A stretch of 20,399 nt of DNA, taken from UHGV virus genome UHGV-0020221; one strand, given 5' to 3'. The DNA comes from a virus. The notes beneath the pieces were generated by a model. It ran no database searches and was not told the origin of the DNA. It saw nothing but the letters and a program-made list of their open reading frames with translations. A program made the position numbers and the translations under genes. Shown here one piece after another: positions 15,946-17,151 of the stretch. The first letter of the stretch is position 1. The number at the start of each line of letters is the position of its first letter.

Positions 15946-15958
15946 AAATAAGATATAA

Positions 15959-16444
15959 CTATCTGATATTACTGCTACTGTTGCATGTTACCGTGTTTCC
16001 AAATCCTGAATTGCAGTTTGTATATGTGTCAACGCGTGTTGGGTAAGGTTGAGTTATAACAGGCTGGCGCGCTTTTTGCTCGATCGCTTGCATTGTGTTT
16101 ACAGCCTGATAATTCAATAAAGCCTGCTGGAATGCTTGGCTTTGTGCTATTTGTTGTGCTTGTTCTTGGCTTTGTAATTGAACATAAAGATTCTGAAGTT
16201 CAAGTCTTGCCTGTGTGTCACTTATCTTGCCTTCATCGACACCTTGCCCGAGCATCTTCGCAGCAAGGACATACAGCTTAGGTGTTGGTGCTGATGCCAT
16301 GCGAGAGTCGTTCTTCAAGCTGGCATCAAGGCAATTAGCCATATCGCTAAGCTTTGGATAGCGTTGCTCGCAACTTGCCTGATAGTCGCTTACTTTTGCG
16401 CACCCAGCCAGCAGAAGCGGGATAATTAACAGTGATTTTTTCAT
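15959..16444 (-). CDS. Putative outer-membrane lipoprotein (161 aa), accessory gene; candidate superinfection-exclusion factor
   Basis: Minus-strand ATG at 16444 preceded by AAGGAG. N-terminus MKKSLLIIPLLLAGC is a signal peptide with lipobox (LAGC); Ala at +2 after the Cys suggests outer-membrane sorting. Gln-rich predicted coiled-coil middle, Cys-containing ends. Opposite strand to the structural operon; AT-rich. Confidence 0.7.
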   Translation of the reverse strand: MKKSLLIIPLLLAGCAKVSDYQASCEQRYPKLSDMANCLDASLKNDSRMASAPTPKLYVLAAKMLGQGVDEGKISDTQARLELQNLYVQLQSQEQAQQIAQSQAFQQALLNYQAVNTMQAIEQKARQPVITQPYPTRVDTYTNCNSGFGNTVTCNSSSNIR

Positions 16445-16478
16445 ATAATTAACTCTCCTTAGTTTTGCGCAGGATACC

Positions 16479-16844
16479 ATGAAAAAAGTTAACATTGGAA
16501 ACGTACCAAAGATGCTCGTTCCGCTCTTTGAGAGCGGTACAATTGTGTTTTGTAGAGACTTTCCAGAATGGCAACGCCTGCATCAAAAACTTGGCGTTGA
16601 CGTGCATGACTCGGACGCCAACGGAGCGTCTCATACAATGAGTAGCGAGAATGGTGTTTTGCATGTGATAGGCGTGTTCAATGGCAAACTATCTACTATT
16701 GCCCATGAGTGCGCTCACATGGCATTCGATATCTGCTCAAGGGTAGGTGTTGATGTTGAACCAGGAAGAGCCAACGAGACTTACTGCTACTTAATGAGCA
16801 GGCTTGTTGAGTTCTGCGAGCGACATATCAAAAAGCCGGAGTGA
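16479..16844 (+). CDS. Small cytoplasmic protein (121 aa) with HExxH zinc-metallopeptidase-like motif
   Basis: AGGA 4-5 nt before ATG 16479. No signal peptide. HECAH motif in ...KLSTIAHECAHMAFDICSRVG..., resembling the catalytic motif of ImmA/IrrE- or SprT-like minimal metallopeptidases. Divergently transcribed from the lipoprotein gene with only 34 bp between start codons. Confidence 0.55.
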   Translation: MKKVNIGNVPKMLVPLFESGTIVFCRDFPEWQRLHQKLGVDVHDSDANGASHTMSSENGVLHVIGVFNGKLSTIAHECAHMAFDICSRVGVDVEPGRANETYCYLMSRLVEFCERHIKKPE

Positions 16845-16856
16845 CCCGGCTTGATT
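16830..16856. terminator. Candidate bidirectional terminator between the convergent HExxH gene and the small minus-strand ORF
   Basis: AGCCGG-agtgac-CCGGCT hairpin (16834-16851) flanked by AAAAA on the left and a T-rich stretch on the right; overlaps the stop codon of the HExxH gene. Confidence 0.45.
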
Positions 16857-16857
16857 A

Positions 16858-17037
16858 TTACTTTTTGCTGTCTGGAGTTCGCTTATCCAATACCCAGCCA
16901 TGACCTGGCTTTGTTGTTGGTGGAAGCCTTTCGTTGTCCTTGACGGTTGCAAAATTGTCTTTCTTACCGCCGCGTGGGCCAACTTCTTGGTATATTCCGC
17001 CGTTTTTTCCTGTGTTTTCACCTGGTTTTTTCGCCAT
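16858..17037 (-). CDS. Small basic Gly/Lys-rich protein (59 aa), unknown function; position corresponds to the small ORF between sieA and mnt in P22 (recollection)
   Basis: ATG at 17037 (minus) with GAGG 8 nt upstream; the ORF-track start at 17052 would place the Shine-Dalgarno inside the coding sequence. Protein MAKKPGENTGKNGGIYQEVGPRGGKKDNFATVKDNERLPPTTKPGHGWVLDKRTPDSKK. Confidence 0.5.
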   Translation of the reverse strand: MAKKPGENTGKNGGIYQEVGPRGGKKDNFATVKDNERLPPTTKPGHGWVLDKRTPDSKK

Positions 17038-17127
17038 GATATACCTCAACATACACCCGTTATTGGGCGATTAAATATTGATCTCATTTTATAAGTAGTC
17101 AATATGGCCCAGGTAAATGCAAAAATT

Positions 17128-17151
17128 AACCCACCTTCAGGTGGGTTTTTT
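17128..17151. terminator. Strong hairpin terminator overlapping the 3' end of mnt, candidate bidirectional
   Basis: AACCCACC-ttca-GGTGGGTT perfect 8-bp stem (17128-17147) followed by TTTTT (17148-17151) on the + strand; T/A-rich on the other side. The mnt stop codon lies in the loop. Confidence 0.55.

Follow-up and report, generated by a model that had tools for sequence, protein, structure and literature searches.

The virus genome UHGV-0020221 (20,399 nucleotides, hereafter the window) comes from a P22-like (Lederbergvirus) prophage of Escherichia coli and shows 100% identity to the chromosome of strain IR53017. An earlier note on this DNA had drawn attention to the interval at 15946-17136, in which a minus-strand lipoprotein gene (15959-16444) and a plus-strand gene for a protein with an HExxH motif (16479-16844) are divergently arranged, and had proposed the pair as a candidate exclusion or defence module. 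Both open reading frames (ORFs) are real, their start codons lie 34 nt apart, and the locus is, as the note recognised, the sieA/immI accessory hotspot. The two-gene module, however, does not exist. The interval is the "ant moron", the fast-changing accessory region of P22-like E. coli prophages, rather than a novel type of locus, and its structure is mosaic. Taken as a whole, it is probably best explained by three units that exchange independently of each other: a lipoprotein cassette, a cassette formed by the HExxH gene (hkcC) and the small ORF orf59a, and an orphan mnt.

The independence of the lipoprotein gene and hkcC was evident from a survey of 5,426 complete E. coli genomes. The lipoprotein gene was found in 186 of these genomes and hkcC in 131, while the two were adjacent in only 18. 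By comparison, orf59a was found in 116 genomes and was adjacent to hkcC in 113. Similarly, of 80 viral contigs with a near-identical hkcC, 70 have orf59a next to it, and both genes occur in the same 52 phage records. Each member of the proposed module is also found with other partners: the lipoprotein gene occurs without hkcC in phage Gally and in O104:H4, and hkcC accompanies sieA, hkcB or other cargo in P22, HK620 and many prophages. As hkcC is present in P22 itself, the lipoprotein gene and hkcC are neighbors by chance and do not constitute a new defence module. The true partner of hkcC is the convergent orf59a, not the lipoprotein gene.

The mosaic structure is equally apparent at the DNA level. 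P22 DNA is 97.3% identical to positions 16451-17235 of the window, a segment that takes in the HExxH gene and the small ORF and reaches into the start of mnt. Thus, the earlier note was right that mnt and a small ORF (16858-17037, or to 17052 from an alternative start) had been retained, but not that two genes had replaced the rest: only sieA was replaced, and the HExxH gene is intact in P22. In comparisons with close relatives, the HExxH gene had a ratio of nonsynonymous to synonymous substitution rates (dN/dS) of 0.04, the small ORF one of 0.06 and the lipoprotein gene one of 0.05-0.09, indicative of purifying selection; against distant relatives, dN was 0.12-0.38 for the three small genes, with synonymous sites saturated. 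On these dN/dS values, the lipoprotein gene, hkcC and orf59a are therefore all real coding genes.

A rapid-flux moron holding sieA, hkcC and 59a, the "ant moron", has been described in the region between gene 16 and gene 9 (Villafane et al. 2008, PMC2629481). The window shares with the ant moron of P22, HK620 and CUS-3 (PMC2629481; HK620 AF335538) its position, the hkcC-terminator-orf59a-mnt block and a single minus-strand cargo gene beside gene 16; it differs in that a gene for a 161-aa lipoprotein stands in place of sieA (P22) or hkcB (HK620), and in that arc, sar and ant are missing. In HK620, the order is 16, hkcB, hkcC, tORF59A, HkcD (orf59a-like), mnt/ant remnants and 9. Given the HK620 annotation, PMC2629481 and PMC4837284, this architecture has been in the literature for two decades (2001-2008). 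The locus is thus an ordinary example of a known hyper-variable moron, with one uncharacterised, testable element, the lipoprotein cargo family.

Cargo exchange in the sieA slot

Homology to P22 begins at position 16451 of the window, 7 nt from the ATG of the lipoprotein gene. In an alignment of the window, P22 and ECCWS199, the three sequences are near-identical from CTCCTTAG onward, the single mismatch falling outside the annotated PsieA, and are unrelated to the left of CTCCTTAG. This element is the Shine-Dalgarno sequence AAGGAG read on the minus strand, and the PsieA annotated in P22 (P22 13861-13891) corresponds to about 16478-16508 in the window, within the first codons of hkcC. The swap is exact, with P22-type sequence resuming 7 nt upstream of the ATG, and the lipoprotein gene therefore uses the ribosome-binding site and the prophage-active promoter region of sieA. 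Accordingly, the cargo genes of the slot share one set of expression signals, a minus-strand 5' control region at 16451-16508 (Shine-Dalgarno sequence plus PsieA equivalent) that overlaps the first codons of hkcC, and the swap boundaries match the ORF almost exactly. The earlier expectation that the promoter of each gene must lie inside the other is therefore borne out for the lipoprotein gene, as PsieA is within hkcC, but not for hkcC, which has no conserved upstream promoter.

The slot accommodates diverse cargo. In the 80 viral contigs, the position beside hkcC held the lipoprotein gene in 18, a P22-type sieA in 13, the gene for a 122-aa protein in 12 and that for a 104-aa protein in one, with another gene or nothing in the remaining 36. 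The gene order in O104:H4 HUSEC2011 is gp16, lipoprotein, 104-aa gene, mnt, arc and ant, with hkcC absent, and phage Gally keeps the lipoprotein gene while a different lipoprotein gene replaces hkcC and orf59a together. In a previous analysis, only 22 of 66 P22-like phages had sieA, and this lipoprotein alternative was not discussed (Leavitt et al. 2024, PMC10883804). Further cargo in or beside the slot belongs to PHROGs of unknown function, namely the 122-aa protein (phrog_2651; locus L005 3081-3449, minus strand), HkcB of HK620 (phrog_5962; locus L105 2641-2970, minus strand), the 104-aa protein of O104:H4, which has a signal-peptide-like N-terminus (phrog_19844; locus L004 4012-4326, minus strand), and the second lipoprotein of phage Gally, with 139 aa (phrog_6823; locus L003 3120-3539, plus strand).

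The cargo gene of the window (15959-16444, minus strand, 161 codons) encodes a protein of 161 aa with the N-terminus MKKSLLIIPLLLAGC. It has the basic N-terminus, the hydrophobic stretch and the lipobox of a bacterial lipoprotein (MKK-SLLIIPLL-LAGC; Cys15), and the lipobox residues G14 and C15 are invariant across 26 homologues. The residue at +2 is Ala, which by the Lol rule predicts outer-membrane sorting. The family shares three additional invariant cysteines, Cys25, Cys38 and Cys154, and a further Cys is found at 144; this pattern suggests that the protein forms two periplasmic disulfides. The protein matches phrog_6067 (E 3e-109), a PHROG without assigned function, and had no match in Pfam, NCBIfam or PADLOC and no useful sequence relative in the PDB. 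In the AlphaFold2 (AF2) model, with a mean predicted local distance difference test score (pLDDT) of 64, a helical N-terminal domain is followed by a long Gln-rich helix, and a beta-hairpin forms the C-terminus. The N-terminal 100 residues are conserved and predicted to be helical (pLDDT about 80), and this conserved body is combined with one of at least three alternative C-terminal tails, all of which contain a Cys pair (alignment columns about 135-171; residues about 126-161). These tail versions could form a specificity-determining tip. The protein was also considered as a spanin or a Cor homologue, and both assignments were rejected because the matches span the signal peptide only; that to the Cor family phrog_1119 (E 0.092) is confined to residues 1-29.

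The lipoprotein gene is spread across the Enterobacterales: homologues with 51-97% identity were found in Escherichia, Citrobacter, Serratia, Klebsiella, Cronobacter, Yersinia, Pectobacterium, Morganella, Providencia and Tatumella. Wherever its context was examined (E. coli, Serratia, Morganella and Yersinia), the gene belongs to a P22-like prophage, is flanked by the gene-16 homologue and the tailspike gene, and runs antisense to the late operon. Its location is downstream of PsieA or, in Yersinia and HUSEC2011, downstream of mnt in the same orientation, and expression from the prophage is therefore predicted either way. Taken together, these features provide good support for a lipoprotein that is exported, lipidated and expressed by the prophage.

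The lipoprotein and SieA of P22 share the slot, the strand, the Shine-Dalgarno and promoter region and the restriction to P22-like prophages, and they are mutually exclusive by position. SieA, of which types A, B and C have been distinguished, spans the inner membrane several times and carries an FxRYPxEAxxFNK motif (PMC10883804). In contrast, the lipoprotein is secreted, has no transmembrane helix after the signal peptide, lacks the FxRYPxEAxxFNK motif and shows no sequence similarity to SieA; a tblastn search with P22 SieA gave nothing in window-type loci and located sieA in 13 other contigs. Small phage or prophage lipoproteins that block phage entry at the envelope are known, such as Cor (phi80/N15/HK022), Llp (T5) and Ltp (TP-J34). 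They share no homology with the lipoprotein of the window and may serve as a working analogy for its mechanism. The part of the earlier proposal that concerned exclusion is thus reasonable for the lipoprotein alone, although not for a two-gene module: with modest support, and with somewhat less than an even chance of being correct, the protein is a candidate superinfection-exclusion protein that acts at the envelope as a substitute for SieA. Driven by the PsieA region, it would be exported and lipidated at Cys15 and would reside in the inner leaflet of the outer membrane, with its disulfide-bonded domains facing the periplasm, where it could interfere with the trans-periplasmic conduit of the ejection proteins or with an outer-membrane receptor. 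It is conceivable, if rather doubtful, that phrog_6067 represents a new type of superinfection exclusion on the outer-membrane/periplasmic side, blocking the gp7/gp20/gp16 conduit or the needle, with the tails setting target specificity.

Several points weigh against an exclusion function. No homology ties the lipoprotein to exclusion; the model of the protein is weak (pLDDT 64), and a fold search with it gave generic helical bundles only; and the position in the slot fits other lysogenic-conversion functions equally well. The main rival explanation is that the lipoprotein is a lysogenic-conversion factor that contributes to host fitness (for example, to resistance against serum or envelope stress) and not to phage exclusion. 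Lambda Bor is an outer-membrane lipoprotein moron expressed from the prophage, a description that the lipoprotein of the window shares, and the gene is common in the pathogenic lineages O104:H4, Shiga toxin-producing E. coli (STEC) and ST131. However, in all contexts examined it takes the place of sieA in P22-like prophages, across at least five genera that differ in lifestyle, it shares the expression signals of sieA, and its alternative tails on a conserved body would be expected if an interaction partner varies. None of these three points is decisive, and we regard a Bor-like role as fairly unlikely.

If the candidate role in exclusion is true, the lipoprotein would offer a second, mechanistically different handle on the trans-periplasmic DNA ejection of P22-like phages. 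About 3% of complete E. coli genomes encode it, among them those of O104:H4, STEC and ST131 lineages, so that it could also affect host range in phage therapy. In the literature, we found nothing on a lipoprotein in the sieA slot and no paper mentioning the RefSeq accessions.

The hkcC/orf59a cassette

The HExxH ORF (16479-16844, plus strand, 121 codons, with HECAH at residues 76-80) is hkcC: its product shows 99.2% aa identity to HkcC of HK620, and P22 (AF527608) contains an intact 121-codon hkcC ORF, different in one residue, between sieA and orf59a. The gene is annotated in HK620 as 'hkcC: unknown' and listed as 121 aa, function unknown, in the UAB_Phi20 genome paper (PMC4837284); a literature search gave nothing on the function of any hkcC or orf129. 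The HExxH gene is thus not new cargo but a gene already named in HK620 and listed for P22, although its product, like the lipoprotein (phrog_6067), matches no characterised family. In P22, the ORF is not annotated as a coding sequence (CDS), with the annotated features 'P sieA' at one end and 't mnt' at the other. The CDS is absent from the P22 records AF527608, BK000583, AB362338 and AB426868 (ORF at P22 13861-14226; locus L001 2528-2893). In the first P22 sequence, AF217253, hkcC shows only 71.9% aa identity, probably as a result of sequencing errors, and these may be the cause of the annotation gap.

HkcC belongs to phrog_1365. A profile search of 1.84 billion representative proteins revealed 514 relatives of this type at E up to 1e-3, almost all of them stand-alone proteins of 110-140 aa; in the longer ones (170-285 aa), no Pfam domain was found. 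An alignment of 86 members that are 25-43% identical to the window protein has no more than four invariant columns, H76, E77, H80 and E100, which constitute the gluzincin signature of HExxH followed by a Glu 20 residues on. The AF2 model, which is confident (pLDDT 89), has the order strand-strand-helix-strand-strand-helix(HExxH)-helix, the last helix starting at E100. HkcC thereby resembles the minimal gluzincins and small zincins (thermolysin-type motif, ImmA/IrrE M78, SprT-like and CapP) in carrying HExxH on a predicted long helix, in the invariant Glu 20 residues on at the predicted start of the next helix, in the predicted beta-sheet and backing helix before the motif, in its size of about 120 aa and in having no signal peptide. 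Independent backing for the fold is weak: Foldseek against the PDB gave nothing below E 0.1, a broad profile gave a weak match to myroilysin (E 0.012) among PDB sequences where the subfamily profile gave nothing, and no Pfam match was obtained at E up to 1, with the profiles of ImmA/IrrE (M78), SprT-like, Lit (U49) and PhageMetallopep not matched. One of the 86 relatives matches SprT-like (E 1e-4). Taken together, there is good support for HkcC as a putative soluble, minimal HExxH...E zinc metallopeptidase that is made late. A lantibiotic assignment was rejected, as the 12-15 bit matches on which it was based are spurious and arise from the HEC motif. A conserved putative metallopeptidase gene is absent from the standard P22 annotations, and its family of several hundred cluster representatives, known so far from phages and prophages and located in late operons, lies outside Pfam.

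The late expression of hkcC is indicated by its orientation and surroundings. In the window, it is co-oriented with the late operon, and members of phrog_1365 are always oriented like late genes. The sequence upstream of hkcC changes with each cargo gene, so that no conserved hkcC promoter is possible there. In the siphoviruses of Klebsiella, Rosenbergiella and Xenorhabdus, hkcC follows co-oriented tail-assembly genes, with a gap of only 14 nt in Xenorhabdus. Paralogues with 35-40% identity (orf129 of L/ST64T, epsilon34 gene 70 and mEp021_49) separate the lysis cassette from the packaging genes, and relatives at a greater distance are found between transglycosylase and terminase genes or overlap the start of a P22-type portal gene. 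The family members placed in this way among late genes include orf129, mEp021_49 and those in a Robbsia prophage and in locus L095. Given the lack of a conserved promoter and the constant co-orientation with late genes, hkcC is most likely expressed in lytic growth as part of the late transcript, and we infer that HkcC acts in the cytoplasm at that stage, a role that is hard to reconcile with exclusion by a prophage-expressed protein. A point on the other side is that late expression is deduced from orientation and context, and a weak local promoter within the lipoprotein coding sequence is possible.

The orf129, epsilon34 gene 70 and mEp021_49 proteins belong to the family of HkcC and have the same late-operon orientation; unlike hkcC, their genes lie between the lysis cassette and the dec/terminase genes and have no orf59a neighbor. 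Mini-zincins of phrog_1365 recur at the junction of the lysis cassette with the terminase and portal genes in unrelated temperate phages (L104 2501-2890, which is orf129 of phage L; L106 3477-4061, mEp021_49; L095 6001-6363; L092 6001-6372). The P22-like phages ST160, SE1 and UAB_Phi20 have two copies, hkcC and an orf129-type gene.

The second gene of the cassette, orf59a (16858-17037, minus strand; HkcD; phrog_3202), has 59 codons, or 64 with the alternative start at 17052, and its Gly/Lys/Pro-rich product is 98% identical to that of P22 orf59a. The match to Pfam YjzC (PF14168) is weak (19.1 bits with a cut-off of 25; E 0.0017), a relative in a Clostridium phage, 43% identical, is annotated as 'YjzC family protein', and a search of PDB sequences gave nothing useful. 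Between the convergent genes lies a bidirectional intrinsic terminator (16833-16852), annotated as 't mnt' in P22 and 'tORF59A' in HK620, and upstream of orf59a on the minus strand is a promoter-like site, TTGACT-17-AATATT (17074-17102).

A scan of genome contigs with a profile of the hkcC subfamily gave three loci. In the siphovirus tail operons of Klebsiella oxytoca, Rosenbergiella, Xenorhabdus and Proteus, the copies show 60-63% (hkcC) and 76-80% (orf59a) identity to the window. All six aligned copies retain the intergenic hairpin, with compensatory changes in Klebsiella and Proteus, and the TTGACT and AATATT cores are invariant in the window, P22, Klebsiella, Rosenbergiella, Xenorhabdus and Proteus while their flanks have diverged. 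The linkage of the two genes, together with the kept terminator and promoter-like site, therefore identifies a mobile unit made up of hkcC, the bidirectional terminator and orf59a, the last with a promoter-like site of its own. In the siphovirus prophages, the cassette sits between the tail-chaperone and tape-measure genes (L006 6001-6563, L008 6001-6556, L009 5001-5580 and L010 5001-5527), and hkcC/orf59a is a moron common to podovirus and siphovirus late operons. In the Klebsiella oxytoca prophage, a gene for a 537-aa protein with SNIPE/T5orf172/MUG113 domains (L006 10241-11854, minus strand) lies just after the tape-measure region and adjoins two Arc-like genes; it may be defence cargo.

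In the three-unit explanation, HkcC would act on a cytoplasmic protein in lytic growth. A more specific possibility is that the two products of the cassette are functionally coupled, Orf59a being made in the lysogen from its own promoter, and late HkcC then removing or antagonising Orf59a or the target of Orf59a. The adjacency in 113 of the 116 genomes with orf59a, the shared 52 phage records and the movement of the pair into siphoviruses as a unit, with terminator and promoter-like site conserved, would all fit such coupling, and in these enterobacterial phages orf59a is almost never found without hkcC, whereas hkcC lacks orf59a in 10 of the 80 viral contigs. However, the linkage may reflect mere adjacency in a small mobile block. 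Moreover, distant relatives of hkcC (orf129, mEp021_49 and those of Robbsia and L095) have no orf59a neighbor, and the YjzC-like relatives of orf59a in Firmicutes phage records are not among the hkcC matches. We therefore consider the coupling quite unlikely.

Lit of prophage e14 is an HExxH protease. An analogous role for HkcC, as a prophage-expressed abortive-infection protease that cleaves a host factor upon superinfection, would be consistent with its HExxH motif and its location in the immunity/exclusion region, but it appears very improbable in view of the absence of any PADLOC or Pfam match (Peptidase_U49 included), the co-orientation with late genes without a conserved promoter, and the paralogues at the lysis-packaging junction of late operons. 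Least probable of all is the reading of the lipoprotein and HExxH genes as one co-selected exclusion or defence module expressed by the prophage: the two are adjacent and divergent, neither protein matches a characterised family and the locus is a known exclusion hotspot (PMC10883804), but the 18 adjacent pairs among 186 lipoprotein-carrying and 131 hkcC-carrying genomes, the other partners of each gene, the place of hkcC in the P22/HK620 backbone, the lack of a PADLOC match and the relatives of hkcC in late operons of unrelated phages without the lipoprotein all argue against it.

Boundaries, orphan mnt and base composition

The left boundary of the accessory region is the gene for a P22 gp16-type DNA-ejection protein (14098-15945, plus strand), 74% identical in aa sequence to P22 gp16, the close homologues of which are named 'P22-gp16 family phage DNA ejection protein' or 'DNA transfer protein' in RefSeq. 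The right boundary is the tailspike gene (17536-19527, plus strand; RefSeq 'phage tailspike protein'), which encodes an N-terminal head-binding part 74% identical to that of P22 gp9.

The third unit, mnt (17137-17388, minus strand), encodes an Arc/MetJ-type repressor (Pfam Arc, 2.8e-22; Repressor_Mnt, 2.2e-18) with 76% aa identity to P22 Mnt. No sieA, arc or ant was found in the window, and the gap between mnt and the tailspike gene (17389-17535) is only 147 nt. The mnt gene is an orphan repressor gene left after the loss of arc and ant, as in phages L and ST64T. A hairpin of -19 kcal/mol (17128-17147), 'tMNT' in the HK620 annotation, covers the mnt stop codon. The lipoprotein and HExxH genes had been described as bracketed by hairpin terminators; strong bidirectional hairpins are present at 16833-16852 and 17128-17147, but both lie to the right of the HExxH gene, and no canonical terminator was found in the 13 nt between the gp16 and lipoprotein stop codons on the left.

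Apart from Mnt, the four small proteins, when scanned against Pfam, NCBIfam, PHROGs and PADLOC, matched nothing but PHROGs without a known function, and PADLOC-DB 2.0 gave no family at E up to 1 for any of the four. The window contains no second copy of hkcC or the lipoprotein gene and no tRNA gene. The prophage end in IR53017 adjoins ybhB, and a 100-codon ORF of unassigned function lies between the tailspike gene and this host gene (19604-19906).

The interval cannot be called an AT-rich island, as had been suggested: its G + C content is 0.442, compared with 0.478 for the whole window and 0.466 for the gp16 gene, which places it at the 18th percentile of equal-sized windows; the tailspike gene has 0.378. 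The true low-GC segment is the receptor-binding part of that gene (17901-19527), which has the lowest G + C content of the window, 0.363 as opposed to 0.444 for the head-binding N-terminus, which is the usual signature of an exchanged serotype-specific module.

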